64,000 bases of DNA from Psammoneis japonica (taxonomy: Eukaryota): contig QPGO01000108.1 in the NCBI GenBank assembly GCA_008632985.1, forward strand, positions 52,476-116,475. Direction: 5' to 3'. Numbering within the stretch: position 1 is the stretch's first letter; each line of letters begins with the position of its first letter. Positions 19,141 to 64,000 of the stretch are shown here, piece by piece. The notes under the pieces were generated by a model that saw nothing but the letters and a program-made list of their open reading frames with translations, was not told the DNA's origin and made no database searches. The position numbers and the translations under genes are program-made.

Positions 19141-19170
19141 TGCAAAAAACAGCAAAAAGTGTCAATCAGC

Positions 19171-19382
19171 TGGTGCACAGTTTGTTGATCCAAGGTGGAT
19201 TGAAAACACAGTGATCTGTCTTGGGTTTGAGCACTCACAATGTGACAGTGATGGCAAGGTTGCCAAGCTCCTCATTTGGTGTGCAGTTTGTTGACACAAG
19301 GTGGATTGAAAACACAGCAATCTGTCTTGGGGGTTTGAGTGCTCACAATGTGACAGCAATGGCAAGGTCACCAAGCTCCTCA
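19171..19382 (+). repeat. Two-copy ~106-bp direct tandem repeat (19171-19274, 19277-19382), possibly a decayed LRR N-cap coding unit
   Basis: Direct alignment of the two copies. Translated pieces RWIENTVICL..CDSDGKVAKLL resemble W....C.W.G..C..DG.V..L caps. Confidence 0.85.
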
Positions 19383-20479
19383 GAGACACCCTCATCAATC
19401 AATGTGACTTGACCATGGAGAAAGCCATGCCCCCTGCAGCATCAGCCCATGTCTTGGAGCATCGGGGCAGTTTGATGACAATGTTGTGGAGACATGTGCG
19501 CAGAAAAGTGCACTTGGCAAGCACAATGGAGACAAGGCCAGACAGTCTGGGCTGCAGCAGGGGCATTTGCAGCCACACTCTAAAGACAAGGTTAAAGTCA
19601 ATCCATTCAAAGATGGAGTGGCAGTGATGGATGTGGCAAAAGCTGCAGCAAAGTGCCTCTGACTCAGCAAGTGCTTTGCCCCATTGGAAATGGCGCATGT
19701 GAGGAAGCTGGCGTTGTTGCCCTCAGACCCAAACTTGACATCAATGGCACAACGGGTTGCAGCAGGGCATTGGCAGTTGAGCTGGGTCCTTCAATGCAAC
19801 GAAGCATTGCGCGCTTCCACAATGGCAAAGCAAAAGGGCGCCTTTGCTCATGCTGACACTTTTTTGCAATGGAGCAATGATGGTGATGGCAAGAATTTGA
19901 GGCAGTGCTCTGAGAAACACAAGTTCTCACCAAACTGGCACAGTGTGAGATGCTGCACTGTGGTGCACCTGGGGTCTGCCAAATCAGAAGAAGACCTGCG
20001 ATGCCTTGACGAGTTGTGAGCTGTCTGCAGCTGTGCCAGAGAAAGAGGTCGGAAAAGAAAAAAATCCACCATGACATGAGCAAGAACACTTGCTTCATTC
20101 TCTTCTGCAGGAGACACGTGCTGAGAAAAGGCAACTGCACAGTTTCTTGGGCAACACCACCAACAAGCCTCTGTCCGAGCCAGGCAAAATTGTGCTGAAC
20201 AACCAACAGCTGCCAGCTCTTCTCTCCTTGATCTCTGACTGGCTGTGAGCCGAGAGGTGTGCCTCTCTGTGCTTTCCCAGGAAATGCAAGAACGCGCAGT
20301 GAGGTGTCTGAAAAAGGAGCGTGACAAGTTCAGTGGTGTTGCAGAGACACATCATCGGAGTTGAGTGCGTGGCAACACTGTAAGACGATCGAACATTTTT
20401 TGGATTTTTCTTCACTTTTTTGGCGTTTTTGGCGAATTGTCGTCTCGTGACTCGCTGACTCGTGATGCCGTCATCAATC

Positions 20480-22367: not shown

Positions 22368-23278
22368 GACTTGTTCCAGACTTAGGTGCGCTCACGCGCG
22401 AAAAAATGACCCTTTTCGCATGAAACGCGCGGTCCACACTTGCGGTACCATTTTCGATAGTAAAAACATAACAATTTTCAAATGTGTTGTTATGGGTACA
22501 TACAGAAAGGTCTTGTGCGTGTACCCATGTATTCGAAACTGTGGATGGACTCAGTTGTTAGTCGCTAAATTGTACCGTAAGTTGAGAGCTCTGTTTTCCG
22601 AGGAGCGATTTATAGATGTCTTAATGTGTGAAGAAACGTATGAAATATTATTCTTATATATAAATTAAACCTCTAACATAACATAATTAATCTTTGGTTA
22701 AAATGCGCGAATACAACTATCGTTCAACGGATCGAATAAAACATACGTTGATTAATAAGTTTCTGACGACGTGAGAAGAAGGGTAGCTCAGCCCACGCAA
22801 TGGCGTCGACTTCGGACCATTTTTCACTGTTTAAAAGGCATAAACGATTGATACACTTCAATCAGTCGAATATATTGAGGAAATATACATGATAATGGCA
22901 AAGAAATGGTCCTTAGAGGCAAATTGTGAGTGAATTGAGGCTCAATTGTTGTTGCTGACAGATTTAGTATTATTGTGCCGCGCTGCAGCCTGTAACAAGC
23001 ATTTTCACTATTTTTGTTGATGCCTTAGACTATATCAAATACGGAGGTCCTCGTCATGACATTAAATTTTCCATAAGGCTGAAAAAAGTGGGCCGTCATG
23101 GTCACTGAAAGCCATGGCCGGTTTGGCTGTTTGTTTGTTCGAGTTTATTCTGTTTATTTTATTTAAAAGCAATTAATATGATCAATATAATGAAATATGT
23201 ACGATGTTGAATAAAGCATAAAAATTTTTTTTTCTGCGAAAAGGGGCATGTGCGCGCCACCTAAGTCTGGAACAAGTC
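22368..23278. mobile_element. 911-bp non-autonomous DNA transposon with 21-bp perfect TIRs and a 4-bp GCCT target-site duplication
   Basis: GACTTGTTCCAGACTTAGGTG at 22368-22388 is the exact reverse complement of 23258-23278. GCCT flanks both ends (22364-67, 23279-82). There is a subterminal imperfect match ATG[A/C]CCCTTTTCGCA and an AT-rich interior with no convincing ORF. Confidence 0.85.
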
Positions 23279-23282
23279 GCCT

Positions 23283-24200
23283 GCCAGTTGCACATGGGAG
23301 TGCTCTCGCGCAGGTGGTTGTTGAAGCACATTGCGTTCACGGCTGCCATTGTCATTTCGTTTCGACAAGTCACAGAAAACTTAAAATGTCAAACACACAT
23401 GGTTGCTCAAGGCATGTGAATGTTCACACAAGTTCTGCATGCTCTGTGGGTTGTCAGATCATGCATCGAGTGAAAATTTTTCACACCCTGCTCCTGTGCC
23501 AAAACGAGTGGACAGTGCACCCCCTCCTTTGGGCCTGGCCGCAGCATGTGAAATGCATCAATGTGCAAATGCAAAAAATTGACACCCAGCACAAAAGAAC
23601 AGGTGGGCAAAGGCGACGACGATGCTGGCAGCTCAGAAGAGAGAGAGCAGGTGTGTTGCCCTGCATGATGGAGAGCTCCTGCACAAGGGAGCACAAACAA
23701 CAACAGCACTGTGCTGACATGGAAAGCCAATTTTGGGCTGTTTGTCACTCAAATGAATGTTTGGCGTGTGTTTGAAAAGCAAAATTATGGTGACCTCTTT
23801 CTCGCCAAACTTGGTGGGCGCCAGAGAGAAAGCATGGCTCTCACATGCCTGTGCAAAGTTTTCCAAACTGAGGCCAGTGACAAGGACATCAAAGAGCAAA
23901 AAAGAATGACAACAAGCAATTGAGTTGGTTGGCTGCTGCAGATGCTCCTCTGCCCACTGGCATGGTGTGATGCAGCAAGAGGCTGAAATTGAAGCGCTGG
24001 CTGCTTGTTGTCCATCCTGTTTTGAACATTGAGCAGGTCCCCAGCATGCACAGGGAGCATGAACAGAAACCTGCTGGTGCATCAGCCACTGCAGAGATAA
24101 CAGAAAATGTGAGAATCGAGCCGTTGTGCGTGCTGAGACTACTTCTGGATGGGCGGGATGGCTGGACCAGGCTGACGTCACATCAGTCGTGAGACGGGAC
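23283..24200. repeat. TpA-depleted, partly CpG-depleted degenerate block C
   Basis: Almost no TA, TG/CA excess and nearly Tyr-free overlapping ORFs. Some CG is retained. Confidence 0.7.
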
Positions 24201-24372
24201 TTGACAAATTAGGAAGTCTCATCGCTCACAAATCGCAGACCGGACGACCCAACGGTCACAGGCAGTGTCGACCCCCCTCCCCTTTTCTCACTCAAATGGT
24301 TGGTCTTTGGTTTCGGGGATCCAACGTCCAACGGTTGCGCCATTCTTGTCACTTTTTGCCACTCGAACGACA

Positions 24373-26193
24373 ATGATATCTGGGCTGTCACAGCGCCTGG
24401 TGGCCTTCCTAGCAGCTCTCTTGATCCTTGCATCATTGCAGGCTATCTTGGTAATTAGAAGTGCTGACAAAGTGTTCGACTACGACAATATCGACGTCAC
24501 ACCCAAACAATTATTTCTGCAGTTTGACGGCCTGGTTGAAGAACACAACACAACCATTGATGGGGCCTTTCTCCCTGGTCCTTTTTATCAAGATCAATTA
24601 TACCTGCTTGGAGCACGCCTCACGACTTCGTATGAGCAGGACAATGACATTGTCGAAGTGACTCTATTTGGCATGCCGGGGGATTTCTGGAGACGGAAAA
24701 AGGATCACAAGATACGATGCAACGTGAATACACTAAATGCAGTGAATGGAACCATGTTCAATCACAGCAAGAGTGAACGAGATGTTGCCCTGTATGCAAA
24801 GGTGATGCCGGAGGGAAGCATCATTCCGATGGAATTCGTACCTACACTTACCGGGGATGTAAACAACAATGGCGTTACGTTGATATGGAAAGCTGATCTC
24901 AGACCATTTATCACTCGAACGGATATTGAGCTTGCGCTTGAAAAGCAAGAATATGACAATGTCTTTCATCAAACCGAAAAAGCTGTTCGTATCGAGTTTT
25001 CCATTGAGGTCAACGACGAGGAGAGACGCAACGACGACAAATCATTGAGTCACCTGGCTACTGTCGACATTCCTCTGTCCACTGGTGTGGTGGGACACGC
25101 CGGACCCCAAGTACGCACTACGTTCTTCAACAGCACCTACAGGAGAAACAAAATACCGTCTTTTTTGGTCCCATCTTTTTCCACCAACGCCTCTCTTTGT
25201 GTTGCCATGTATGGCGAAGAGACCGCAGTTCACTTGCCTGAGTTCGTGCAACACCATCTCAACGTAGGCTTTGATCAAATTATTGTAGGTGTTCTGCGGA
25301 CGCACTTGGGGTCGGATATGATTCACCACGTACAAAATACCCTGGCGCCATTCTTGGAACACGGGTCAGTGGTATTAGCTGCTATGGGTTTGGGATCTGA
25401 TTTAGAGTGCGAAATCAACATTGAAAAGACACACTTTTACAACGGATGCTTGTATCATAGCAAGGGCGTGGCAAAGTACATGGGAAATTGGGATGTTGAT
25501 GAGCATTGGTTGCCACCTCTTTCCGAGGATGAGTGGAGGCACCATACAGACGCACTGTCCGAACGAGGTGAGACTAAACAGACAAATCGAAGTGTAAACA
25601 TGGCACCAGAGCAAGGTATCATTTGGCAACAAAGCAGTTATAGCAAGATTCCCGATATTTACACAGTCATGGAGTCGATTCAAGCTTATCAGGAGCTGCA
25701 TAGTTGTGGAGAGGAATGGTGTTATCACAGTTTCCCATCTGTCACGGTATTTCGAAGACGGATTGGAGAGGGAGCCACATTGGAAGACACCAACAGGACA
25801 TTTACCATCCAAGGTGACTTTGATCGCCGAGAAGATAAGCTCAATCTAGGTTGGGCCAAGGCTGTAGTGCGAACAAAGTTTACCAACGCAGGTGCAACTC
25901 ATATGGCTGGATCCTGCCGCTGGCCACTTCATGATCCTGATAAATACGTTAGAGCTCGGGATGTGACATGGAGCAGCAGCCCCTATCATGATTCAAGATA
26001 TCTGGAACCATGCCGCAACTTGAGAATAGAAGGCTTTGGACTCATGCATCATTTCTCATCTTTGAACCGAATCCGATCACGGGAACGGCGTTCCTATAAA
26101 CCAGACTTGCCTGTGGATGAGTACGTCCACCAGTTTGCAGAGACAGTCCAAAAACAACTCAGCGTGCTCAACAAGCAAAAGGATATAAAATAA
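24373..26193 (+). CDS. Type II membrane glycosyltransferase-like protein (GT92/DUF23-like)
   Basis: N-terminal TM anchor, SLCVAMY..LPEFVQHHLNVGFDQI, YNGCLYHSKG..YMGNWDVDE (DxD motif) and a late MHHF. Confidence 0.75.
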   Translation: MISGLSQRLVAFLAALLILASLQAILVIRSADKVFDYDNIDVTPKQLFLQFDGLVEEHNTTIDGAFLPGPFYQDQLYLLGARLTTSYEQDNDIVEVTLFGMPGDFWRRKKDHKIRCNVNTLNAVNGTMFNHSKSERDVALYAKVMPEGSIIPMEFVPTLTGDVNNNGVTLIWKADLRPFITRTDIELALEKQEYDNVFHQTEKAVRIEFSIEVNDEERRNDDKSLSHLATVDIPLSTGVVGHAGPQVRTTFFNSTYRRNKIPSFLVPSFSTNASLCVAMYGEETAVHLPEFVQHHLNVGFDQIIVGVLRTHLGSDMIHHVQNTLAPFLEHGSVVLAAMGLGSDLECEINIEKTHFYNGCLYHSKGVAKYMGNWDVDEHWLPPLSEDEWRHHTDALSERGETKQTNRSVNMAPEQGIIWQQSSYSKIPDIYTVMESIQAYQELHSCGEEWCYHSFPSVTVFRRRIGEGATLEDTNRTFTIQGDFDRREDKLNLGWAKAVVRTKFTNAGATHMAGSCRWPLHDPDKYVRARDVTWSSSPYHDSRYLEPCRNLRIEGFGLMHHFSSLNRIRSRERRSYKPDLPVDEYVHQFAETVQKQLSVLNKQKDIK

Positions 26194-26244: not shown

Positions 26245-27706
26245 TCAGCTATCCGTGTCGTCGATATCCAGGTTGACGTCTGCTGCACGCAATCCCAGTT
26301 CGGCAATGCGAGCGGCTACTCGTACATTCAATGAGTTTCCCAACAGCTTCCACTGTTGTTTCATTGTACATGATTTTGGAAACTCAAACGACGAACATGG
26401 TTCCTCCTCGGTTGCTGACCTAACCGCGTCGTCCGACCTTGGTGACCGCACCGGAAAGCCCATGAGCCTAGCGATTTCAGTGCCCGAAAAGTAGCGCAGG
26501 TGACGCTTCCAATCCAGCCCTTTTGCCCAGTCTGGATCAAACTGTCGTTCCTCAGGCGATGCCAACTCAAAGCAATGTCCAGCCTTATGCTTCTTGTCAC
26601 TCTCCTTAGTTTCTATGTCTTTGTCAGTCTCTTCCTCGATCGGTCCAGTATACAAGACGCTGCCCGTCCCGCGAACAAACTTTCCGTACGACTGCGTAAA
26701 GCAAGAACTCCTACATTGCTCTGGGGTGACAATGTCAAAACACCATGATGAATTACCTTGCATAATTTTGTCGGGTATTGCAAGTTCATGAGATGCAGAA
26801 TCGTTCGAGTCTAGAAACGTTGATATTGGTGGCAAATCCTTGCTCTCTGGAGTGGTTGGAGCAACGTCTAGGGCGGGGATGCTGGTGTGAATAGCGGGCA
26901 AGGAATTATTTTTGTCCTGGGTGGATTCGTTCTCAAGGAAAGTATTTCGAAACTCACTGCCGTCAGTTGCTAGATACTCCCTCCTCACAGCGACACAGAA
27001 ATACCGAGGACGATCATTCGGTAATCCAACCTGGGTCGGAGTCAAGTGAAAGTGTCGCACAGAATAGTCTCGTTCCGACAGAACTGTCCGCCATTTTTGA
27101 CAACTACCGGACTAACGAGACAGAAGAAAAGCGCAGTAAGTATAGCTTAGAATATGAGATAGATATAACACTTCTTGGAGTAGACCGAGCGACTCGCCTT
27201 ACCTTTTCAAATCCAACCACGTTTTCCATCAAAATGACACGTGGTAGTTTTGAAACTTTCATTGTTTTCAACAAATCACACAATCTCAAAAAGCTCCTCG
27301 ACCTTGGGTCCTCCAAGTCTTGATGGGTATTGTCATGCTGTCGTGTGTGTGGCTGGCACGGTGGACTCATGGCCCAGACCGTGGCATTCCATTCCTCAAC
27401 TTGTGCTGTGGTCAAGCGCTCGATTGAAAACGGAATAACCGATCGTTTGCGTTTCTTGCCGTGTAGTTGTTGTTGTTTGCTTGTCGTAGTAGTGCCGAAA
27501 TTGTGATGAAACACCAATCGACAAAGATCAGAATGGTCCAAGTCTGCCAAACGCTCAAGTCGTATGTTCGTCTTGTTTGGTTCTATTCGATTAAGGGCTT
27601 GTTGCAGTGCCAAGGTCCAACCGCCAATCCCCGAATAGAATTCGACATAGGTTATTACTGTTTCGTTTCTGTTATCGCTAGAATGCGATGAACATTTTGT
27701 CTCCAT
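26245..27706 (-). CDS. DNMT2: DNMT2/TRDMT1 tRNA (cytosine-C5) methyltransferase; 2 exons (27706-27203, 27111-26245)
   Basis: Motifs EFYSGIGG (I), MSPPCQPHTR (IV), ENVVGFE (VI), PNDRPRYF (VIII), CFTQSYG, LRYFSGTEIARLMGFP and KLLGNSLNV (X). GT..AG intron at 27202-27112. Confidence 0.93.
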
Positions 27707-28009
27707 GCTTAGCAAGCCTCCTGTGTGTGATTTTTACACCTCGATGCAGCACTCGCGACAACAACCAACTGCAGCGAACGGCAAAGTGTGCCATTTTCAG
27801 AGACGCAACGTGCACGCGTCGCCGCAGGTCGGAGGGAGTTTTTCAGTCACGAGTAGGTGAATTTGTGACTGGTTTCAGCCAATCAGATCACATGAAAAGT
27901 CTGTCCGTCAGCACACTCTGGCTTCCCGCATTTTTCGTTCTGCATTTTCTTCACACACCCCACACCATGGCGAATCGTGTCGCCGCTCGCACCACAATAA
28001 CAGAGAAGA

Positions 28010-36273: not shown

Positions 36274-37832
36274 ATGAAGCTTCTTTATTTTCTCTCCGTT
36301 CTTGTTGGCACTGCCACCGTTGGCCGATACGCATTGGCGTCCGCGACAGCGGTCAAGGGTTCTCAAGAGGTAAGCAGACAATTCCGTAATCGTTGTACCG
36401 CGACTTCTCGCGGAATTTCACTCACAACCATACCGATTCTACCTGCTTTCTACAGGTCAAATCGAATCAATACTCTCTTTCGGAGAGGGCCGTCGCGACT
36501 CCATTGACCAAGTTCCCGACGGCTGCTACTCCTGCTCCGTCTCGTGCTCCAACGTGGGCTCCGACTACCACCGGCAAAAAGAGTGGCGCGGCGGGAAAAA
36601 AGTCTCACGGAAAAAAGAGCAAACTCACGCGGAAGCTTGAAAAGTCGTCCAAGGAACCCTCTTCCAAGGCTCCAACCAAGTCGTCCAAGGCTGGAAAGAA
36701 GCGCCGTATCCTTGTCGCCCCTCCCTCGTCCAAGGCACCCAAGGCTCTCGGCTCGCGTGGAAAATGCCGCCGTATCTTTTCCGCAGGCGAATCAAAGGCG
36801 CCTAAATCGTCCAAGGCTCCCGGTGCTTCTACCAAATCGCCCAAGGCTCCGGCCAACAATCGCCTCCTTTCGAACGGTTCATCCAAGGCGCCCAAGTCGT
36901 CCAAGGCACCGAAATCGTCCAAGGCTCCTTCCACGACTGGAAAACGTCGTGTTCTTTCTACCACCGGCTCCTCCAAGGCTCCATCCGTGAAGTCGACCAA
37001 GGCCCCGAAATCATCGGAAACTCTGCACAATACTGGAAAGCGTCGTTTCCTCTCCACTCAAGGATCCTCCAAGGCTCCATCCACCAAGTCATCCAAAGTA
37101 CTAAAGTCGTCAAAGGCTCCGTCCAACGCCGGAAAAGGTCGTCTCCTCTCCACTCACGGTTCCTCCAAGGCTCCCTCCGAGAAATCTTCCAAGGCACCGA
37201 AAGCGTCCAAGGCTCCGTTCTACACTGGAAAACGTCGTATTATTTCCACGCAAGGTTCCTCCAAGGCTCCATCCATGAAGTCGTCCAAGGCACCGAACTC
37301 TTCCAAGGCTCCGTCCTACACTGGAAAACGTCGTGCTCTTTCTACCACCGGTACCTCCAAGGCGCCATCCATAAAGTCGTCCAAGGCACCGAAAGCGTCC
37401 AAGGCTCCTTCGTACACTGGAAAGCGTCGTTTCCTCTCCACTCACGGATCCTCCAAGGCTCCATACACCAAGTCATCCAAAGTACTAAAGTCGTCAAAGG
37501 CTCCGTCCAACGCCGGAAAAGGTCGTTTCCTCTCCAAGCACAGTTCCTCCGAGGCTCCATCCATGAAGTCGTCCAAGGCACCGAAAACGTCCAAGGCTCC
37601 GTCCTACACTGGAAAACGCCGTATTCTCTCCACGCAAGGTTCCTCCAAGGCTCCCTCCGAGAAATCTTCCAAGGCACCTACTTCCACCACCTCTTCCTCC
37701 TCGGATGACTATTACAAATCATCCAAGGCTCCCAGTGGAACCAAGTCGCCGGGACGTCCTCATCGTCATCTTCTCAATTGGAAGGATCTCATGCCCGAGC
37801 ACTACGCGTACTACAGGGCGGTACTCGTCTAA
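36274..37832 (+). CDS. Silaffin-like secreted Lys/Ser-rich repetitive precursor (~490 aa); 2 exons (36274-36369, 36456-37832)
   Basis: A signal-peptide exon (MKLLYFLSVLVGTATVG) is joined by a phase-0 GT..AG intron at 36370-36455. Tandem 32-aa (96-nt) units are rich in KSSK/KAPK (KxxK) and delimited by RRIL/RRVL/RRFL/RRAL. Confidence 0.85.
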
Positions 37833-51325: not shown

Positions 51326-51507
51326 TTCTTTCGTGATGCCGGTAGGTCGATTGCACAAGATATATGCTGCAGCAGGGGGTAACTACATAGGATATCGGAC
51401 TAGTGAACAACGCATCTGGACATACCAGTAGCGACAGGAGCGCACAAACGGGACTGAGAAAATCGTTCATTGAATTATCAAGTTGAAAAAGCGCAAAATA
51501 GTTCTTG

Positions 51508-53264
51508 TTACAACGCTTTCAATTCCTCCAAAAAGCTGGTGCTGTTATGAACCGTGCTGCCGCCTAGAATGACCCGAATTTTGCCTTGGTTGGTTTCATT
51601 AAATTCACTCACTTTGGTGGCCTCTTCGTATGTCACGCCACCAACAATAAACACAATAATCTCTTCAGGAATCATTGTTTCAGGCGATAGACTCGAGCTG
51701 CTTCCTGGAACAAACGGATGTGTGTCAGACTTGAGCTTGCCCTTGATGACTGACTGAATCGTGTCCATGATCAGTGGGACATGTTGCGAATACACGTTGC
51801 TCACGCCCTGTACGCTTGTCATGAAACTCTTGGTCATTTTGCTCATGAGGTTGTGATCTCCGTACAAACCTGGACCGCGTGACTTGGATCCACCGTACCG
51901 AAGAATGACATTGACCAAATCAACCATGTCGGGAGGGACGCCACCTTTACCCATGGCGGACTGAATCAATTGACGTTTCCGGTATTCTCGTATCGCAGCG
52001 CGTACAGCAGCCCCAATCGGAGCTTGTCTGGGATCTTGACAGATGGCGACTGCAACTTTTCCATCAGTTCTCGCATGTGTGCGGTATGGTCGTCGGCACA
52101 CGCCAGCTCTTGTTCAAATTGCGAAACGTCCATGAGTGAGCAAACATCTACCAACCGTGCAAGTTCACCCATGATTGCCACATGCTTGGAAACATTATGA
52201 GAGCGAGTTCGTAGTTCGGGAAACTTTTCCATAAAGTTCTGCATGTCTTCAATGGTATTGAGGTTGGATGTCTTGTGTTGCTGCGTCTGTTTTTGGTAAT
52301 CTTGCAGTAGTTTCTGAATCGCTTCGCCTAATTCACCAAAGTTCTTATGCCTGTTCGCCTTGAAGAAATCGTCCTGATTGGCACTCAATACCACCTCCTC
52401 CAGGTCCTTCGGGATATTGGGAGCTCCTCTGAGAATGACTCTATGGTTGTTCAATCCCAAGAGCTCATGCACCATGGCTTGGTAGGTCCATTGCGACAAC
52501 AACGGTGTTACTGGATCATCACGTCTGTCCAATACAAGCAACACCAAACCACCTCCAGGACTCTTTCTGAAATGAAAAATCTGATCCGATGTGAGTTGAT
52601 CGTGCAAGTCCTTGGCTAGCTGCTTGGCCACAGTCGAATGGCCAGCGTAACGAATAGCAGACGGCTGTTTTCGGAGGGCCAACAACATGGATTGCAAGCC
52701 TCTCAAGTTTCGCTCGTACAAGTGGGCGTGGTTTTGAGCCCAGCTCGTTCCGGCAGCGACAGTCATGGCCAACGTATTGCGGCATTGCAAAGTAAGCAAG
52801 TCTTCATTGATGGGAACAAAGTCTCCGTAAAATTCCTGGACTTGTTTCACTCGCTCTTCTCCATCGTTTTCTGCCAACATACGTAATAATCCTTTTGATA
52901 GAATACCACTGAAGAATAAATGGTATTCAGCAAACCTAGGACGACCCAGCTCTCGCACCAGCAATCCAACATTTGCTTCTGTTGGCCGCACGTAGACCAC
53001 GGCCTTGAGATGACTTGTACTAGACATCTTTTGTGCACTAGAGGTTGAATCGCCGTTGATCGTTTGAAGCATATTTGGGTTTTTCGGATCGTCTAGTCTC
53101 GACACGAGGTACACCTCCTTGTTTAGAATTTCCGTCTGCGAGTAAACGCAGGAAACAATCTGGGTTGTGGATGCATCCAGGAGCCACACCTTCATGCCTC
53201 TGCATTTTTCATCGCCCGTCACGAGACGATCTATATATCCTCGAATTGCTGCAACACCGTCCAT
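51508..53264 (-). CDS. VPS45: Vacuolar protein sorting 45 (Sec1/Munc18 family), with an apparent 1-nt frameshift near 51968
   Basis: MKVWLLD, VQEFYGDF, LDRRDDPVTPLLSQWTYQAMVHELLG, NVYSQHVP and IVGGVTYEEA. Two overlapping ORFs join if one T is added. Confidence 0.93.
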
Positions 53265-54249
53265 TGTAAACGCCGAAGCTTTAACGTCGACACGACTTAC
53301 AGCCCAAAAAAATGATATCCAAGACCCAACGAAGCTTCTATTCTGCAACTCGACGCAGTGGCAGACGATTACTTTTCAATCAATAGGTCTATGAAAGCCT
53401 CTCTTCCAGTTATTTCTGAAAAACAAAATCGTCTCGGATTCTGTAGAGATAATTCTCGAAGCTGCGATGATCTTTCACGAATAAGAGAATAGTCATTATT
53501 GGCACAGCGCCATGGCGGAGGGTGTTGAGAAATGACGACGACGGGTGAGTAAAGCTCGTGGAAAGGAAAAAAGGGTACTGAATTGTGTAGAATACTACAC
53601 AGTCTGCCTCAAGCGATATGTTGGAGCGCGCGCCACACGGAACCTTTTGGCCGACGGCCGTCGCACAGACGTCGCTGTCGAAGGTTTTCGCGCGGATTTT
53701 CCGGCAATGATGTCTCACTGTGTGGCGTAATGAGTTCAGCGTGATGGAGTGTCATTGATGCCGGCAAGTGGAGCTCAAATTAATCAGGTGACAACACATG
53801 TTTTCTCTGTGTGCCGGCTCTCTGGAATCCTTGGAGGGGGGGATTGAAACTGAAGAGACTCACTCAACTCATGTGCATTTGATCACCTCTTGCTTGAAGC
53901 AAAAATGGATCAAAGCAAAGGAGTGCATTCAAATGCACCCACAAGCAATGCATGGGATCACAACTTCATTTGATGGTGCGAGTCTGTTCTTCTCCAGCGG
54001 GCCACTGCCAGCAATTGCCATTTTTGTCAAGGGCTGCCTGGACCTTTTTGGACATGCCAGCGGCAGAGTCACAGTCTCTTCCAGAAAACATGCCAGTTCT
54101 CTTGGCTCTGGCATTGCACTTGAGTCATTGACAAAAAAGAGGCAGATGTCTTCAACCTCCCCAAACTGAAAGTGCTGAGTTTTAACAGAGTGTGCTGCAC
54201 ATGCCCCCAGTTCATTGGCTTGAACATGAGTGCTGCACAGTCTGCGCAA

Positions 54250-55800
54250 GACAGTTTGGCTGGATGAAAAATGTTGTTGTGCACTTGAGGTTGGACTGTG
54301 GCAGCCACGCAGAACAGAAAAATGCAGAGCTGAAAAATGATCAGCATGAACAAACCAATTCTCAATGTTCAGAAAGGTCAACAACACCAACATGAAGTCT
54401 TGGTGGTCTGAACATGGCCATTTGTCCATGTTGAGTGCTCCTTCTGGCAGCTTGCTTTTGAAAAACACAGACAAGCCAGATTTTGATTGAAACAACATGA
54501 GCAAGAGCAAGCTCAGGGAAAACAACTGAAGCTGACCCTTTCAGCATTTCTTTGCAGGAACAACATGACAAGGCTTGTGGTGTTGAGGCAATGCTTTTCA
54601 TGACCCCTGAGCCAGATTGTTGCCAAGAGCATTTGACAGGACAACCATGATGGGAGGTCCATCCTTTCGAAGTCGCACCTCCATGCCACATGTTTGTCAA
54701 GTCCTGCCAACCAGGGCAGTTGAGGGACTGCAAAAGAGAAAAAAGTCAAGCATGAGAGGTGCAATTTCCCTGCACCTGCAAGCTTGAAATCTCAGTCCAG
54801 AACAAAAAGGCACCTTCATGAAAGGCAGCATTGCTGGCGCAAGGCACTGCAAATGTGCAAACTGCAAGGGGTCCATCTTTGGCAAGGTCTGGATCTGCAG
54901 CTTGCAGAATCCAAACAGTGCTGCAATTGCACCACCCAACAAGTGACCACTGATCACAATCTGCAACCTTGGTTGGGAAACAGACAATGACTTTGATTTT
55001 TTTCACCTCATGCAAGACTTTCCAGAAACCCGGTTGCACAAGCGGCTTGATGTCTTCCTGAACAATCTTGTCAATGGGCCTCATCTTGCTTTTCGAAGAC
55101 CAAGAAGGACTTGGGAAAAGCCCCGGTGCACCAAGGCACTGTTGACGACATCATTCTTTTCTGCATCAGTGTCAGGATTTGATTCTTGTCTCTCTGTGAC
55201 ACAAAAAGAATGAATTGGCTCTGCAAGAGTGCCCCCACTGCTTGACTTTTCCCATTTTGGAGACTCATCAGACTTGCCCTTCTGTGCACTTTGAAGTTTT
55301 GCTGGACCAACCCCACCAGGCATTCTTGAGTGATGCACTTGCCATCCCACGAAACACAATCTCAGCTTGCTTCTTTTTCTTCTTGTTCACAGCAATGCGG
55401 TGAATGCAAGGGGCCTTGGCATTGTCCTTTTTGTTGGCAAATGTGCACAAATCATGATTGTGTTTGGGTTCATGTGTGAGCTCTTGGTCGCGCTTGTCAT
55501 CACTGTTCAAAAACCTTGGTGGTGCTTGTCGTCACTGTTCAAAAAGGCAGAGACAGCCTTGATGGCTTCTTTTTCCACACTTTTGCCACCACTGTCAACT
55601 GCCATGTGCACACAACACACAATTTGAGAAGAAATGATGTGAGGATCAAAAACACAAAACTTGGTCAAGACAGCCACACTCATGGACTTGCAGGTGAGCA
55701 CCTCACTGAGCTTGTCAAGGTCCTTGGGATGTTGTTTGCTGACCTTGAGGCTCTTCAACAAATCTTCCCTCCATCACTGTGCACATCTGATCTTGTCATG
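54250..55800 (-). pseudogene. Decayed class 3 lipase (alpha/beta hydrolase)
   Basis: Ordered remnants: IAVNKKKKKQAEIVFRG (~55350), ALVHRGF (~55120), IVISGHLLGGAIAALFGF (~54940; GHSLGG with TCG->TTG) and VCTFAVP..SNAAF. Boundaries approximate. Confidence 0.75.
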
Positions 55801-56129
55801 GACTTGTGCAACAATCTGTCAAGTCCTGCACTGCCATGTGCAACACCCAAGCAAGCATTGGGAACATCCCATGCATCCAAGAATGTGCTGCATGTGACTG
55901 ACCAAGTGCTTGTGTCCATTCAACAATGAACGCAACTCCTTTGTCAGTCCGTGCCACTGACAATCTTGTCATGGTGGCACATGGTTCCTTGTTGGGACCT
56001 GCATTGACTGCTGTGGATGCAAGCATGTCTTCTGCAGGCACAGCTGTGCCTGTTGCATGTGAAGGCTGTGCCACATGTGACCAATCTGGCAGCAGTGCCC
56101 CTTGCAACACCAAATGCCATCTCCACATT

Positions 56130-56520
56130 GGTTGGCACATGTTGACAAACTTGTCATGGCATCATGTGTGTGCTATCCAGGCCTGCATTGCCCACTGCAG
56201 CCACCAGGCCACCAGCATGTCTTGTGGAGGTGCTGCTGCTGCCTCTGTTGCATCACATGGATCAAGGCACAGCCCACATTGCCAAGGCTGCTGGGAAGGC
56301 TGTGATTGGTTGTCATGTTTGGGTTCCAGACCCCATCCACTGCTGCACCAAGTTGTGCCCCAGCTCCAAGGAGGGCACTTTGGCTGCATGTCCCATGCCA
56401 CCAAGAGTGCCCTTTGGCATGATCTTGCAACCTCCCAGCAGGTCAAGATTGCCCAACATGTGCACTTCAATGATGTCATGGACAACCTCCAACATGAGAA
56501 GATCAATTCAAGCAGGATGC
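56130..56520 (+). mobile_element. Decayed Copia fragment (post-integrase SH3 region)
   Basis: IGCHVWVPDP..TKLCP..KEG (cf. FGCRVWV..P...KL....G.FLGY) and ALWHDLATSQQVKIAQHVHFNDVMDNL (cf. WYD..T..VK.ARHV.FDE). Confidence 0.7.
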
Positions 56521-57389
56521 TTCACCTGCTGGTCCCCATGATGAACGGATGCATGAAAGCTTCTTTGCTTTCTGTTTCACCTGTGGTGTCTTCTTTGAGC
56601 TCCACTGGGTCCACAGAGTCCAAGTTGGGCTTGGTTCTCATGTCCACTGCAAGCAGCTGCAATGACATCGAATGTCACTTTTCAGAGTTTTGGGCAGGCA
56701 TGTGAGGCTGCTGGCATGGGCCATGGGGTGCAGGGAGTTGGGATGTTGTGTGGAGCTTAAACAAGAATGTGCACCATGTCAAAACAACTGCAACATCAAA
56801 ACCCATTGTTGCTGCCAGTGGGGCAGGTGAGGACACCTTTCCATGGGCTCCAGAATGCTTTGAGGGAGAATTGAAACTCAAAGCTGAATGAGAGACCAAC
56901 TCTCACATGTGCTGGTTGTTGATCTTCTCTTGCTTGAAGCAAAAATGGATCAAGACAAAGGAGCACCTTCAAGTGCACCCACAAACAACACATGACATCA
57001 CAACCTTGTTTGGTGGCAAATCCACTCATCAAAGGGCATGTTGCAACAAATGTGTTGTTGAATTAAAACAAAGAGATTTCTCTCATGTGATGGAGATGAG
57101 GTGGAAGATGGGTTTGAGATTTCCCGTCACATGTGTGACTTTGTGCAGCCATCATTTGACACAGCTTTCAGTGGTGATGATTTAGACTCATCCACAAAAG
57201 GGGCACTTGTGCAGTCAACATTGTTTTGTGGCAATGGAGACAGCTTCAAATTGCACTCTCCAGTTCAGGGACTGGCAACCAAGAGCCACACCACGCATGG
57301 CACCATGAGCCCGTGCACCCACAACCCCCACAAGTGGAGTCTAAGAGGCGGCATTTCCACACCACCATGCATGGGCAGGACATTGCTGT

Positions 57390-58050
57390 GTCAGTCAATG
57401 CTGATGAACTGGGTGAGCACATTGTCCATGATGCAAATCTCCTTCATTTAAAAGGCCTCAGTCTCTTGTTGCATGTGCACAGCAGTGGGGGCAATTGGGG
57501 GGAATTGGCAAAGAGATGCAGCAGCATCTGGCACACTGTGTGCTCACAAAAATTCTTCAAGCACACTGAGTTCCTTTGTGGAGACATGGTTGGACATGAC
57601 AGAAAAGGGCTTTTGAGTTGTCTTGCCATGACATGAGGATGTCAAGAATGCACCAGGCTTGTGCCTCAGCCCTGTCGGCGCAGTGTCACAGAATGGCCAT
57701 TGACTGCAGCCAATTGTTGGCTGCTTGTTTCATGGAGTCCATTCATCCACCCAGGAATGGCGAGTGTGCAAGATGCTGTTGGCCAACCCAGCCAGCCAGA
57801 GGGCAAGTCCATCGGATGAAAATGGACTTGGCTGACAGCTTCTGGCAAACACATCTTGCTCCCAGCACTGTGTCACTTCTGGGGGTCAATTCTCCTCACC
57901 AGCTGGGTGAGCCGCCCCTCATGGCTGTCCCAACATGACCATTTGCTTGTGGGATGGTCATGTTCACCACCAGTTTTCAGCGGGGGAGCACTGAAGCCAT
58001 TGCCAACATTTGCACACCTGTGGTGCACACCCCAACACCCCTCTTGGCAT
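57390..58050 (+). mobile_element. Decayed DIRS/Ngaro-like reverse transcriptase fragment
   Basis: DMTEKGF*VVLP..PGLCLSPVGAVSQ..PIVGCLFHGV; KMDLADSFWQ..LGVNSPHQLGEPPLMAVP; LLVGWSCSPPVFS (cf. KxDxADGFY..LPMGW..SPP.F). Confidence 0.75.
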
Positions 58051-58799
58051 TTGGCATTGAGTGTCCCCAGCTGACATCTCCAGCCCTTTGCACACATCTG
58101 TTGTGGCACTTGGCCCTGCCAACCTGAGATTTGCAGCCACCAATGTCTCCACTTGATGTCTCTGAGTGGCCGTCATCCAGCTGAGCCCATTGGTGTGCAC
58201 AACTTGCCACCCGCATGCTTGCCAGTGGTGACTTTGTCCTTCACCCCAATGCCAATGTCCATCCCACTCACTGCCACCAACCCACAACCCATGTGGCTGC
58301 CTCACACATCACCACAGCCCTCCAGCTGGGCCCACCCTCCACCCTCAATTTGTGCTGGCTTGTTTTTCATTGCTGTGCATGTGGGGGCCATGCTGCTCCA
58401 GCTTGGGAATGGAAAGGGAACAAGCCACATCAGCAAAGTGTTCCCATCCCTGCAAATCCAGTGCTTTGAAACCTGCAAGACACAGATCACCACAAGAGGT
58501 CAAACAAGCAAAGCAATGCCAGTTGCTGGCCTCATGCAGACCAACAAGTTGAGACACCTCATGGCCAGTTTGAGCTTCCAGCATCCCCCCTGCATCATCA
58601 ATTTGAACACAAGTGAGTTGGCAAACAAGTGCTGCTGCTCCTCTCATTCTTCTGAAGAGCTTTGGCAGCAAGTCAAACAAACAGTTGAAAGTGCTCCAAC
58701 CCCTCCAGCAAAGCACTCCCACCCCCCTGCCAGTCCAGTGCTTTGACACCCACCAGACCCAGATCACCACAAGAGGTTGAAGGAGCAAAGCAACACCAG

Positions 58800-60250
58800 T
58801 CACTCTCCAAGAATGTGCCTGTCTCAAGTTGAATTCCTTTAGCATGGGACAAGAGGGAGTGGCACCCCAAGGTGGTCAGGCAGGCAGAGAATGGCATGTC
58901 TTCATCATCTTTTTGCCTCATTTTTGCGTCACATGGCTCAAGGGCACTGGTGCAACATGGCACCTTGGCATCAAGGGTGGTGGTGCTGCCTTTTGTTTGA
59001 AGCTTGCCAGGGGCCAGGGGCTGCAAGGTCAAGCACAAGGGTGGCACAATGTGGTGGCTCTGTTGGACAAAGTGGCTGCAATCCTCAAGAGCCCAGGTGC
59101 TGGCTTTTCCCAGCCATGCTTTTGGGGGCAGCAAAGTGTGTGTGCAAGCATTGGTTTGGTGGGAACCATCCCTTGACATGCTTGCCAGTTGGCACTGCAA
59201 GTTTCTCATTGTCAACAACAGCAATGAGTGCCAGAGTTGGGAAGACTGGCAAGCACACGAGGGTGTGGCAGCAAAGCCCACAAGATGTCAGGCAGGAAGC
59301 CCCTCATTTGGGAAGGCATTGATCAATTCAGTCCACACCAAAGCATCATTGCTGCTGCCCTGGCCCAGTTTTGGCAGCCAACAAGAGCCCCTCTGCTCTT
59401 GCACATGGCTGCACAGTGCATGGAAATGGGCCTGGAGCAAGCAGGGAAGTCAGTGGTCAATTTCAGGCGTGAATCTCATGACGGCCAGGTCAGGTTGATG
59501 GGAGACAACATCCAGACCCTTGGTTTGAAGCTTGGCCAACTTGATGCTTTGCTGGGTTCAGGCTTTGACCACTCTGTTGAGGTCCCTGCAGTGTGAGGTG
59601 CCCTGGCCAACTTGGCTTCTTCAGTTTCTGCATCTGGATTGAAGGCATGAGTGGGGAAGGAAGTGATGCCAGGTTCTGCCAGGTCAAGGATGATTTGCAA
59701 CAACAGACAGATGTGGCTCTCAGGATCAGCCAGTGTTCAAGGCAGGGGCTGCAGACCTGGGCACATTGAAGGTGGGTGTGCTTGCCACATGCAGCCAGTT
59801 GGTGAGCAAGGTCTTGTTGCTGGAGACTCATGGGTCTGCTGGGGGGCACCCAGCACAGCTGTGAACCCAGTCCAGGCAGATCAGATCACTTGCATGGAGC
59901 GGGTTGTCAATGCCAACTCAAGGCCAATTTGGGCAAGTCAGCCAGCAGCAAAGTTCTCAGGTGTTGGGATCTCTGACTTCACCAACTGTCATGCTTGGAT
60001 GGTCCAACAACTCCCATCTTGAGCACACGGGTGTGTCCCACCACACTGGTGTGGAGATTGAGCCCATTCCCCAATGCCATTTGTTGCCAGAGATCTCCAA
60101 GCAACTTGTTCTCAACAATCTCAAAACTGAGAAGGATGCCTGGACTCTTGCCACCTTCCAATGCAGCATGCTGAGAATCCTTGGCTCAGGTGCCACCACA
60201 TGGGGTGGCTGTTCTCTGGGATGTTGCACCCTTCATTTCTTGACAAGCTC
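58800..60250 (-). mobile_element. Probable decayed Gag-like ORF of a DIRS/Ngaro-like element
   Basis: Weak remnants only: C.DW.. at about 59870 and a terminal CL..HL.G Cys/His-knuckle-like segment near 58860-58890. Confidence 0.3.
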
Positions 60251-60949
60251 CCCATGCATCTAAGCTGGTTGTTGGGGTTCATGGGGGCCAAACATTTGAG
60301 TTCTCAACCAGGCAGTGACTGCAGAGAAAAATGCCCTCAGTGCACTTTGAAGAGTCAGGTCACCAGGTGTCATCCAAGTTGGCTGCATTTGTCAGGGCAC
60401 TGACTCAAAACACAGTCAAAACTTGCAAGTCACTGACCAAGAATCTTGGCAAGCAATCCAAAAACAGACATGGTTGTTGACTGCTGCTCTTGGACACCAG
60501 ATCTTCAAGGACCTTGGGAATGTGCAATTTCACACCCAGCAGGTGACAAAAACAATGTGGGTGTGTTGCAAAAGCACTGTTGTGAAAATCACTTGCCAGT
60601 TTGGTCCAGAAAAAGTGGGATTGAGGGAATGGGGAATCTTGTCAAATTTCTGTTTGTTTGGATTTTGGATCACATCAAAACCGCTGCTGTTTGCACTGTG
60701 GATCATGCAAATCATCAGGCCATCACTCGTCTTCCACCAGTGATGTCATCATGACAGGCTGCACTGCCATTGGGGGGCAGACAATGCACCAGTGCTGCAT
60801 GCACAGATTCTCTGGGTGTTTCTCTGCAACAGCCCAAGTCAAAAAGCCATGTTCTCCTTGGATCGTGCTTCCCAGGTGTGCCTGGGCAGTGCTGCACTGC
60901 TGTGCACTGGAGGCCAGTGCATGGCCTTGCTGTGTTGGCCAGCAGATGC

Positions 60950-63900
60950 ATGCTGCACACTCCCCCATGACCCAGGATGCCAAGTGTCAGAATGTGCTGC
61001 TGGCAAGGGCACAATTGCTGCAGATCACACTTGTCTTTCAGCACTCTGTGCTGGATGTGCAAGGTGCCTTTGTCACATGTGTGGACAACTCTGGCTGGGC
61101 CTGTGCAACTGTTGGCACCACACTTTGTCTTCTGTTCTTGTTTGACAAGCACCAATTGTCCAACAGCACATGTCAGCCCTCCTTTTGTTTTGTGTGCTCT
61201 TGGACTGTGCTTGTCATTTGAGAGGACAAGCTTCTGCTTTCTGGTTTCCATGCACCTCCACTCAGTGCAATGGACAGCAGACAAAATTGCATCACATTCA
61301 AAGACCAACTGCACAGGACTGGCACATGTGGTCACATGTGCCACAGGGCACACAGCAAAAGCTGCATCAGACAGAGTGCCACTCCACATGTCATCCTTGT
61401 CTAGCTCCACATGTCTTGTGTTGAAAATGAGTGCACCATGTTGCCAAGCATCTGGTGTTCAGATTCCACTGTGCACTTGTCTGTGGATTTCTCTTGCTTG
61501 CGGGCTTCTTCTGAATGCCGTGATGATTGTTCTGTGTCATCTGGCTGAACTCAGCCACAAATTCTGTCCCATGGTCACAAAGGGCCTGGGCTGGCCATGG
61601 GTTTCTGCATGGCTTGTCTTGTTCTGTGATGTTTGCTGCTGTGTCACATGTTTTTGCAGACACTTCCTTGACCTCAATTCACCCAGTTGCTGGGTCAATC
61701 ATTGTGGCTGCCCATGGCTGCACGTTGTCTTTGAAATCTTTGAATTTTTGCAAGGCCCTGTCATGTCTGTGCATGGAGTCTCCCAAGGAATTTTCTCTGC
61801 TGCCTTTTCTGGCAACTTCCCACAATGCCAAATTCTGCATTTTGCACTCCACATTTTGTCTTCTGGCATTGATCACACTTGACACATTGAACATGTGGAA
61901 TGCACCACAGACCTCCACCAGGCCAGTGGAAGTGATGGGTGACACATGTTTCTCCACACATGTTCAACCAGGATGACACAGCTGCTCAGCATGGTGCCAT
62001 TCAGTTGGAGGAACCTGCAATGATTGTGTGGCACAACAATTTTGTCCTTGTGACATGTTGACTGTGGCATGACCCTCCCAATGGAGCACATGGATGGAGC
62101 AGTCAGACAAGTCCTCAGCTTGCAAGACCTGGTGCTTGTCCTGTTGTTGCTCTTTTTGGATGTGCCCAAAGCTGACAGACAGTGATGCCATCTGTGTCAT
62201 GCCCACATTGAAAGCTTCACGCAACAGATGACAATCTGGCATCTCAACAACTTCTGGATGACACTCAAAGGCAAGCTGGGCACCAGTCAAAGTTGGCTCA
62301 ATGCATCAGTGACTGGGTCATGTTGTCCCTTGATGTGCCACAATTCAGGACTGCATTCTTTGCACATCAACCTCCAGTGCAAGATTTTTATGATCATCAC
62401 ATGCAACCACATGTTGACCAAGGAGAATTGTGCAAAATCCTTTCAATGTCTTTACAATGGCAAGCAGTTCTTTCTCCATTGTTGCATGGGTAACCGCACA
62501 CTGTTGAGCTTTCTGCTGTGGAGAGTGGAACTGACTGGTTTGTCATTTTTGATGTGGCTGCTCCAAGTTGACATTTAGAGGCATTGGCACAAATCTCAAA
62601 AGTTTTGTTGAAGTCTGGTGGATGTGCCAATGAGACATCCTTGGACAATGCTTGTTTGGCAGTTTCAAATGCTTTGTCTTCAACAGATGTCCAACTCCAG
62701 CTCCAACTCCAGTTGACAGTCTTGCTTGCAAGTCTTGCAGTGGGCACCTAAATTTCAGAATGTCTGAGCCAAGTGTTGTGGTGGCAGTTCACCACACCTG
62801 TGAATGAGCAGAGTTCACACTTGTTTGCAGGCTTTGCAATGTGTTTGAATCCCAGTCAACCAAATGGCCCACATCTTCCAACTGGGTCTGACAGAAGTGA
62901 GACTTTGTTGTGTCAACTTTCAGCTCTGCTTTCTTGACTTGTGATGAGACTTCTTCAGTTTTGTTGGGGCATCTTCATGGGTGCCTTTGTCATCATGAGA
63001 AGGTCATCTAAGTGCACTTGCATGAATGACAGATCCTCTGATGAGGTTGACATTTTCTCCTGAAATGTGTCTGGTGAGCTGCACAGTCCCACGGCCAATG
63101 CCTGCATCTCACACTTTCCTCATGGGAAAACAAACATGCAGAGAGCTTCTCACTGTCACAAGCCAAAATGGATGTGACAACAACCCACATTTCCACATGA
63201 AGCCATCAAGCTTTGGCAGCATGTCTTGGATGTGAGGGATGGGAAAAGGCACTTGCTTTGTCCTTCTTTTGCATGAGTGTGATGGCATGGCAGATTTTCA
63301 TTCACACCTTTATCCAATGAATTGAAGCTGCAAGGCCACCCAGTGTCATGCTGGCCTTCTCCTCAGATGTCCACCATGGACTCATCTGTGGAGTCACTGA
63401 TGATGTGTGGATCATGGAAGTGATTGAGCTCCTCCTTGCACACTTCTTCTTTGCATTGGAGATGGGGGGTTTTCTGATTTTTCTTGACAATGGAGTTTGA
63501 CCTTTCCTTGTCTTGAGGTTTCCAACTGAACTTGTCAGTGCCACCACTTTTGTGTGATGTCTCAAATGTGCCTCACATGGTGCTTGAGCACTTGGCAATT
63601 TTGCACTTGGCAATTGTCAGTCATGCGGCCACAGTCAACCCCATGGAGCACACATGGCTTCTGGGCTTTCTTCTGATTCATGACCAGAATTGTCTGTTCT
63701 GCGGCCCTGCTTGTGTGGAACCTCAGCACATTGGTCTTGGATGCCTTCCACATCCTCAACCTGCATGATTTGAGTTTGGCCATGGCATGTGTCAGTGGGT
63801 CAGCAAAGTGCAGCGGCACTGCATGCTTCTGCCATGTTTGGCACATGGGCAAGTTGTGCAGCTCATCATTGGGCAATGACTCTGGCATCACGTCTCCACT

Positions 63901-64000
63901 GTCCATCACAGGCAGAAACTGAGGGATGCAGCCATCAATCTCAATTGCTCTCACAACACACTTGTGGGTCTTGACATCAGCCAACTTGCCATGAAACACT
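60950..64000 (-). mobile_element. Decayed Ty3/Gypsy retrotransposon (gag remnant, RT, RNase H, integrase)
   Basis: In order: LPNDEL (gag), PFPIPHIQDML, GLCSSPDTFQEKM..VHLDDLL (RT), WTSVEDKAFE..AHPPDFNKTFEICANASKCQLGA (RNase H), WHH...LCHPG, TMIDPATG, CDHGTEFVAEF, RNPQ and ASPVQLVFECD (integrase). Confidence 0.92.

Follow-up and report, generated by a model that had tools for sequence, protein, structure and literature searches.

A degenerate Ty3/Gypsy copy in a pennate diatom lies in one of several DNA blocks nearly devoid of TpA and CpG

Three sharply bounded blocks in the nuclear DNA of a pennate diatom have lost nearly all of their TpA and CpG steps, as our analysis of 64,000 nt from Psammoneis japonica indicates, and one of these blocks contains a degenerate Ty3/Gypsy retrotransposon. 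The stretch analysed, called the window throughout, covers positions 52,476-116,475 of the forward strand of contig QPGO01000108.1 in assembly GCA_008632985.1. The change runs from TpA and CpG to TpG and CpA, is restricted to steps of a pyrimidine followed by a purine (YpR, or YR steps), affects both strands alike, took place after duplication of the affected DNA, stops abruptly beside normal genes and recurs in environmental sequences. We think it probable that the blocks record a domain-restricted mutation process, which acts after insertion or duplication on the self-complementary YpR steps of double-stranded DNA and has an effect like that of fungal repeat-induced point mutation (RIP) with a different chemistry.

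Both dinucleotides are depleted in the same blocks, while the rest of the composition is unaltered. Three blocks were delimited by two-state segmentation, and a shorter one is partial, as listed here with its observed/expected (o/e) ratio.

Block 1: TA-poor 2781-5476, CG-poor 2804-5518.
Block 2: TA-poor 16219-20534, CG-poor 16253-20250.
Block 3: about 53770-64000 (TA-poor 53782-64000, CG-poor 53763-64000), at least 10.2 kb, extending past the window end and containing the Gypsy pol.
Partial block: 23262-24377, about 1.1 kb, with 5 TA and a CG o/e of about 0.47.

Block 3 has only 17 TA and 54 CG, together with 1214 TG and 1221 CA, i.e. o/e ratios of 0.03, 0.09, 1.86 and 1.97; the corresponding ratios for the ordinary sequence that separates the blocks (33 kb) are 0.59, 0.96, 1.16 and 1.18. 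The density of YR steps is 0.240-0.246 per base in the blocks versus 0.242 outside and the 12 remaining dinucleotides are unaltered. What has changed is thus only which YR steps are present, on a purine/pyrimidine skeleton that has been preserved. Five edges lie inside the window, and at four of them the TA-poor and CG-poor limits are no more than tens of bases apart. When 255 overlapping 500-bp segments were scored, 64 were low in both TA and CG, 172 were normal in both and 19 were intermediate, eight of the latter at block edges. The initial annotation had placed the change in the catalytic motifs of a Gypsy element; the motif changes are real, but that scope is too narrow, with TpA and CpG lost across three blocks.

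Two block limits fall at genes. At the end of block 2 there are 788 bases without TA (19593-20381), CG being back from about 19700, and the TA-poor state is about 280 bases longer here, up to the start of a NUDIX gene. The partial block stops at the first ATG (24373) of the next open reading frame (ORF), presumably its start codon. The blocks lack TAA and TAG and have only TGA as a stop, which results in long phantom ORFs on both strands. In block 3 such ORFs of 200-300 aa, e.g. 60971-61882, 55902-56705 and 58075-58746 (all on the plus strand), occur on both strands, also antisense to the integrase, and are rich in Cys, His and Trp and free of Tyr.

The Gypsy copy in block 3 was recognized through P0271, an intact 1497-aa relative from an ENA metagenome. 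Residues 726-1494 of this protein align by tblastn from 63267 down to 61006 (E 2e-64), collinear through reverse transcriptase (RT), RNase H and integrase, in four alternating frames (-2/-3/-1/-2) and across several TGA stops. The copy thus has the pol order RT-RNase H-integrase that serves as the criterion for Ty3/Gypsy. Pfam detects only the RNase H in it, and at threshold: RT_RNaseH_2 (PF17919) scores 30.0 bits with a cut-off of 29.8 and RT_RNaseH (PF17917) scores 24.8 with a cut-off of 24.8, marginal values because of the mutations. At least 21 stops interrupt one reading of 817 codons, and there are several frameshifts. Judged from these together with the HLDD and WHH motifs, the window Gypsy is a dead copy and does not have the intact YxDD, integrase HHCC/DDE and open pol frame expected of a functional member. 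Its 5' part extends past the window end (64000); repeat searches within the window found no pair of long terminal repeats (LTRs) around pol, the element leaving the window at that point. The pol and its altered motifs are as follows, all on the minus strand.

61006-63267: degenerate Ty3/Gypsy pol (RT, RNase H, integrase), by collinear tblastn to P0271.
63165-63191: NVGCCHIHF, where GYYHI of P0271 has become GCCHI.
62997-63017: VHLDDLL, with the His codon CAC (63012-63014) in place of the Tyr of RT YxDD; P0271 has YIDD.
62769-62795: VVNCHHNTW, where NYYRD of P0271 has become NCHHN.
62604-62630: RNase H motif LAHPPDFNK, where P0271 has AYPDF (Tyr to His).
62562-62597: RNase H motif EICANASKCQLG, with Thr to Ala and Asp to Asn at TDAS and two Cys in variable columns.
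61967-62005: integrase zinc-finger region TEWHHAEQLCHPG, with WYH changed to WHH in the alignment to P0271.
61547-61582: integrase core LCDHGTEFVAEF, where relatives have xDRGxEF.
61511-61612: integrase core stretch, which also has PCRNPWP where relatives have RYPWP.
61511-61531: NNHHGIQ, where relatives have DYGI.

Tyr and Arg have been lost from this pol far more often than other residues. We compared it with 21 intact homologues from a HMMER search, using only well-aligned stretches and columns with at least 70% agreement, which gave 169 conserved columns, 111 of them kept in the window. Tyr is kept in none of its 10 conserved columns (4 His, 3 Cys, 1 Trp, 1 Met and 1 Asn) and Arg in 2 of 12 (5 Cys, 3 Gln, 1 His and 1 Ala), compared with 109 of 147 for the remaining residues (Fisher p 3.5e-6 for Tyr and 1.2e-4 for Arg). 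A change of TA or CG to TG or CA in the observed context explains 34 of the 58 changed columns, another transition 8 and a transversion 16. A cruder earlier mapping gave 113 kept columns and then 37, 12 and 55, the last number being inflated by misaligned frames.

The catalytic motifs differ in how firmly they can be read. At YxDD, 7 of 11 intact homologues have Tyr and none has His or Cys; at WYH, 18 of 20 have Tyr and again none has His or Cys; at AYPDF, 15 intact homologues have Tyr (9), Phe (5) or His (1). The Tyr losses at these three motifs are solid by this comparison. The two Cys of ICANASKCQLG in RNase H lie in variable columns, where Tyr is the commonest residue in only 5 and 6 of 16 homologues, and at the Cys of CDHGTEF intact relatives have H, Y, I, F, V or C. 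The initial annotation had quoted HLDD, AHPPDF, ICANASKCQLG, WHH and CDHGTEF as a systematic replacement of Tyr by His or Cys, through one transition at a TA on either strand in each case, and had named intact, active relatives with His or Cys at these positions as the finding that would overturn it. All five motifs are present on the minus strand where it placed them, including the CAC codon. The overturning finding did not turn up, the single His at AYPDF being the one such residue in intact relatives at the three firm motifs. The single-transition account agrees with both the protein and the nucleotide data, except that the Cys of CDHGTEF, one of its six sites, cannot be assigned to a former Tyr.

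TA and CG were the ancestral states, and TG and CA are equally likely outcomes for each. Scanning metagenome contigs with a pattern gave 80 related loci, most of ordinary composition with a TA o/e of 0.6-1.0; the scan relied on a 9-sequence alignment (A2), an alignment of 39 sequences (A1) being too diverse for it. In the purine/pyrimidine alphabet the window Gypsy aligns to metagenomic loci over more than 2 kb with about 75% identity. We threaded the real bases onto such alignments with 40 intact metagenomic Gypsy loci and counted the window state at each relative's YR step, the site pairs being mutually non-independent.

Relative TA (2198 site pairs): window TA 1.7%, TG 49.9%, CA 47.5%.
Relative CG (1188 site pairs): window TA 0.4%, TG 47.8%, CA 50.9%.
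Relative TG (3048 site pairs): window TA 1.1%, TG 65.6%, CA 32.1%.
Relative CA (2250 site pairs): window TA 2.0%, TG 27.6%, CA 68.8%.

In 231 control pairs of intact loci with similar divergence, 62.7% of TA and 49.6% of CG are kept. Since the TA and CG of relatives read TG or CA in the window and are retained at these rates among intact pairs, TA and CG are ancestral, and the TA-to-TG/CA direction proposed in the initial annotation is supported. A consensus-based substitution spectrum of the metagenomic relatives had 172 usable positions and gave no clear answer.

The repeats within the blocks indicate that the conversion followed duplication. Short direct repeats there are 76-86% identical in ACGT and 93-97% identical in the purine/pyrimidine alphabet, one pair being the following.

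53879-53978 and 56919-57018, plus strand: direct repeat pair, 83% identical in ACGT and 97% in purine/pyrimidine, the differences being TG-versus-CA doublets.

Four repeat pairs share 101 YR steps, at 23 of which one copy has TG where its partner has CA. Such doublets mean that both copies had TA or CG there and were resolved independently after the duplication. For the three closest pairs (303 positions) the transition rates are 28/136 = 0.206 at YR steps and 15/167 = 0.090 elsewhere, with 9 transversions. The background divergence thus looks ordinary although nearly all TA and CG have gone, and as a rough estimate the rate per TA or CG step would exceed that of neutral transitions by a factor of tens. 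Along the blocks, TG and CA are randomly interleaved (runs test z = -0.78, 0.66 and -0.10 for blocks 1, 2 and 3). Their equal numbers and the absence of strand tracts point to double-stranded DNA as the substrate, with either strand affected.

The target is neither one transposon family nor retroelements as such, because a duplicated gene fragment was affected as well. The partial block holds, at 23687-23979, a diverged duplicate of part of the adjacent gene (24853-25104), and this parent gene has normal composition. We used two ungapped cores for the comparison; local alignment with cheap transitions over-extended. The nine CG steps of the gene read CA (5) or TG (4) in the duplicate, and its seven TA steps read TG (4), CA (2) or TA (1).

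Similar losses recur in environmental relatives of the pol. Nine of 87 HMMER homologues of at least 130 aa are nearly free of Tyr, with 8.4% Cys plus His versus 4.9% in the rest, and the eight Tyr-poor ones that were looked up come from contigs of ENA and JGI/IMG metagenomes. Two conserved-Tyr columns of A1 read Y 27, C 5, H 5 and N 2, and Y 23, H 7, C 6 and other 3, respectively. Locus L052 (1518 bases; TA o/e 0.19, CG o/e 0.04) keeps 14% of TA and 3% of CG at the sites of its relatives, shows no excess of non-YR transitions and has an open pol frame of 425 aa with WCH, GPH and RHPWP. Only the change of CGA to TGA creates stops, hence open frames survive heavy damage. Two more loci, L079 and L065, are partly affected; there were too few sites in these three loci for comparing the flanks of converted and surviving TA. 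We also observed three loci (L010, L035 and L009) with a CG o/e of 0.08-0.15 and a normal TA o/e of 0.75-0.86.

The window sequence is present in public sequencing data. One public run (X1) contains 69% of the sampled words of the window and a second (X2) covers 13 of 30 bins, whereas no contig of a third (X3) could be placed; no RNA run is among the public runs listed as containing window sequence. The contigs of X1 (Logan) have a word depth of about 47-63, which equals that of the genes on the flank, and they differ from the window at places in genes that look like single-nucleotide polymorphisms (SNPs), so they are no copy of the assembly. One of them spans the edge of block 3 (51465-54469) with 5 other letters, and inside the block there are contigs over 58875-60781 with 6 other letters and over 62136-63073 (939 bases) with 1. 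The summed depth over the integrase region is 1100-1800 versus about 59 for the single-copy flanks, which means that this region is multi-copy. Between paralogous contigs and the window, transitions account for 274 differing places and transversions for 111.

The differences listed between contigs and window in block 3 also fall largely on YR steps: of 32, 19 are transitions at YR steps, 8 are non-YR transitions and 5 are transversions. Ten of the 19 form five TG/CA doublets, four are residual CG or TA of the window that read TG or CA, and five are TA or CG at a TG or CA of the window. The four residual sites are 53998, 55350 and 56546 (CG) and 56758 (TA), one of which is in the edge-spanning contig of the same locus. 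This hints that haplotypes, strains or copies are not alike in which leftover sites have been converted. Contigs of both runs join 53966 to 57134 and omit 3167 bases, 98 other letters standing in between. The direct repeat pair given above coincides with these limits, and the join may be an allele or paralogue without the segment, similar to a solo LTR.

The mechanism that we propose takes the Gypsy as a dead copy in one of several repeat-derived stretches of the chromosome. After insertion or duplication, nearly every TpA and CpG would be converted to TpG or CpA by one transition per site on either strand, and the process would halt once a site is converted because the TpG/CpA product is no longer a target. 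TAY codons for Tyr would become CAY (His) or TGY (Cys), CGN codons for Arg would become codons for Cys, His or Gln, and TAA and TAG stops would vanish. The CpG half would be deamination of 5-methylcytosine (5mC) in methylated repeats, and the TpA half another activity that works in the same places with no less efficiency. Its chemistry would most likely be deamination of adenine to hypoxanthine, which is read as G, on either strand, or else mispairing or repair of modified T or A. The simplest chemistry to unify both halves would be hydrolytic deamination, of C or 5mC to T at CpG and of A to hypoxanthine at TpA, leaving TG on the affected strand and CA on the opposite one. The activity may be aimed at silenced or repeated DNA and end in its inactivation, and the domains might be chosen by repetition, chromatin or methylation. 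A mutagenic modification of T or A at TpA would be an alternative; in kinetoplastids and dinoflagellates, TpA is a favoured site of TET/JBP-type thymine hydroxylation. We speculate, as something less likely than not, that some diatoms and possibly other marine protists have a TpA-directed activity on double-stranded DNA, either a strongly mutagenic symmetric modification of T or A that marks silent repeats beside 5mCpG or a dedicated A or T mutator, which together with CpG decay would remove all self-complementary YpR steps from repeated DNA.

Several observations weigh against a single repeat-directed process of this kind. The two CG-only loci L010 and L035 keep 58-73% of TA and 4-5% of CG, which makes the CpG and TpA losses separable, and the ratio of TA to CG survival varies between blocks; the two halves may be unrelated processes that share a target domain. 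Transitions outside YR steps are also in excess, 0.342 between the window Gypsy and intact relatives and 0.249 among the intact ones, so ordinary decay or a broader transition bias acted as well. Relaxed selection on a dead copy can account for this excess, which does not by itself prove YR specificity. The duplicated gene fragment has TG/CA flips at 10 of 28 steps and non-YR transitions at 17 of 102 positions. Each flip needs two steps and shows that there was no single clean round; this fits an old copy whose TA or CG steps reappear through neutral transitions and are then resolved once more. A burst and a steady high rate give the same picture and cannot be told apart, the chemistry at the TpA step is one that we infer entirely, and X1 may be the assembly's own sample and thus not fully independent.

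Blocks 1 and 2 are a further point on that side, as no transposon was recognized in them. A Pfam search of blocks 1-3 in all six frames, with stops as X, found nothing beyond the Gypsy RNase H, and a targeted Pfam scan of block 2 had no match at E up to 5. The 271-aa ORF at 18244-19056 in block 2 had no homologue in a word-indexed search limited to proteins of 476-2000 aa. A Copia-like pol end seen by eye at about 18750-19100 stays unsupported after the Pfam and homologue searches.

Passive decay would explain the blocks as old, unselected, methylated DNA that lost CpG through 5mC deamination and TpA through a weak genome-wide bias. The window background already leans this way (TA o/e 0.59, TG and CA 1.16-1.18), metagenomic relatives grade from CG-only to partial TA loss, and the window Gypsy is old, with its extra non-YR transitions, frameshifts and transversions. 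In Phaeodactylum tricornutum, CpG-context methylation of a retrotransposon has been described as preliminary, data not shown (Maumus 2009, PMC2806351), and the loss of DNMT5a correlates with a methylation level that falls globally and with young transposons being overexpressed (Hoguin 2023, PMC9998398). The CpG half is in fact identical to the methyl-CpG decay of vertebrates, plants and some fungi, the symmetric change of CpG to TpG and CpA being present; that decay, however, leaves TpA alone, and the TpA loss of block 3 is at least as complete as its CpG loss. We regard passive decay as unlikely, since other non-coding stretches keep TA (55 TA in 22600-23260; TA o/e 0.82 in the 2-kb bin at 46001), the domain edges are sharp within tens of bases, repeat copies with 3% transversions and 9% non-YR transitions are already without nearly all TA and CG, and L052 lost 86% of its TA without extra non-YR change and with its frame open. 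A true RIP-type system, i.e. a homology-triggered burst, possibly premeiotic and perhaps using a diatom RID-like DNMT4 with a new dinucleotide preference, seems to us quite improbable in spite of many likenesses. Fungal RIP (RID/DIM-2) likewise makes only transitions, in repeat-derived DNA and on both strands, has sharp limits beside genes and a strong dinucleotide signature, and lets copies diverge until similarity searches fail. In addition, a gene duplicate and a retrotransposon were both targeted here, the integrase region is multi-copy, and diatom DNMT4, its function stated as unknown, groups with fungal RID (Hoguin et al. 2023, PMC9998398). But RIP changes only C:G to T:A with a preference for CpA, creates TpA and lowers GC (RIPCAL, PMC2621366), and the window has no such C-to-T change at CpA with a rise of TpA: TpA is what disappears, A:T-to-G:C changes make up half of the total, CpA and TpG are the products and not the substrate, and GC is not lowered. 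As for a restriction to duplicated DNA, the multi-copy integrase and the duplicate are affected, but the parent gene of the duplicate is untouched and parts of block 3 look single-copy, with single-copy depth at 85% or more likeness. The sole DNA_methylase-family gene of the window, moreover, is DNMT2-like by its best matches.

Editing before integration would be ADAR-like (A to I in the retroelement RNA) or APOBEC-like (C to U in its cDNA), with reverse transcription fixing the changes, and would share with our proposal transitions of the deaminase type by which retroelement copies are inactivated. A 5' U (UA) is preferred by ADARs, hypermutation of retroelements by APOBEC3 is well known, and the signature does stop at the edge of the element's block. 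These enzymes act on RNA or single-stranded cDNA before integration and leave G-to-A or A-to-G changes that are strand-asymmetric, and editing of one strand would leave only TG or only CA on the sense strand; the strand asymmetry expected of them is not found, TG and CA standing at 1214:1221 without tracts, the block repeats were resolved independently after duplication, and a gene fragment that is no retroelement was affected too. Such editing is therefore very improbable. We give as little credit to an artefact, in which sequencing or polishing miscalled modified bases at palindromic sites and put TG or CA there at random. If a symmetric modification were read in one way on one strand and in another on its complement, it could mimic the random TG/CA pattern, and the sole run containing the stretch is possibly the assembly's own sample; yet the depth of X1 equals that of the flanking genes and its contigs have SNP-like differences from the assembly, the same Tyr-to-His/Cys change and TA/CG loss occur in metagenome contigs of two archives, and the pol also has frameshifts and transversions. 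A live element adaptively purged of TA and CG to evade host silencing or nucleases is hardly credible at all. The open 425-aa frame of L052, in spite of its strong depletion, would agree with it, but open frames are expected without selection when only CGA can become a stop, L052 likewise shows conserved Tyr replaced by Cys or His (WCH, GPH, RHPWP), and the window copy has its many stops, frameshifts and lost catalytic and conserved residues.

The window copy resembles the Ty3/Gypsy elements of diatoms (GyDi; Maumus et al. 2009, PMC2806351) in the order of RT, RNase H and integrase and in that its nearest relatives are environmental and marine sequences; it differs from them in being dead. In the literature searched, with most subscription journals and supplements outside reach, we found no description of a joint loss of TpA and CpG in repeats, of RIP-like mutation or of 5-hydroxymethyluracil or N6-methyladenine in diatoms, of repeat-directed point mutation outside fungi, or of a process removing TpA through A:T-to-G:C change. 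The SPLASH preprint (PMC9258296), in the passages concerned, mentions diatoms and hypermutation in unrelated contexts.

The window outside the blocks is gene-dense and intron-poor. Its Vps45/Sec1 gene has its best matches in diatom proteins with about 82% identity (the named ones from Pseudo-nitzschia, Nitzschia and Cylindrotheca), and the other genes encode adaptin, V-ATPase subunit d, G-alpha, a subtilase, the NUDIX protein and a DNMT2-like protein. The last of these is the only DNA_methylase-family gene in the window.

26248-27733, minus strand: gene of the C-5 cytosine methylase family (Pfam DNA_methylase), present as two ORF pieces.

Among proteins of solved structure, the closest to it are DNMT2 / tRNA(Cys38) methyltransferases, so it is DNMT2-like and not RID/DNMT4-like. 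The subtilase (Peptidase_S8) is covered by two overlapping plus-strand ORFs in different frames (11591-12943 and 12748-15546), which suggests an intron or a frameshift, and is followed by a long Pro/Thr/Ser-rich tail. Inside the ORF at 36390-37832, a 96-bp tandem unit is repeated seven times at 36894-37769 (plus strand) and encodes a Ser/Lys/Ala/Pro-rich repeat protein (...SSKAPKSSKAPS...); the TG o/e of this stretch is locally low (0.65).

Genomes generally under-represent TpA and have an excess of TpG and CpA, for which the usual explanations are selective, i.e. stop codons, mRNA stability and DNA flexibility. The window background deviates in the same direction, whereas in the blocks, where the DNA is dead, the bias is some 20-fold stronger and demonstrably mutational. 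Depleted DNA of this kind has practical consequences too. Gene callers will predict proteins from it, and Tyr-free, Cys/His-rich "proteins" are already in public sets; ordinary similarity searches miss it, while homology extending over more than 2 kb becomes visible once sequences are aligned in the purine/pyrimidine alphabet. If the speculation on a TpA-directed activity is true, some diatoms would have a genome-defence mutator of a new specificity outside fungi, the first to drive A:T-to-G:C changes, and TpA deficiency would have a mutational cause. This deficiency is among the oldest unexplained dinucleotide biases, and an extreme mutational form of it in the dead DNA of a culturable alga would make its cause experimentally approachable.

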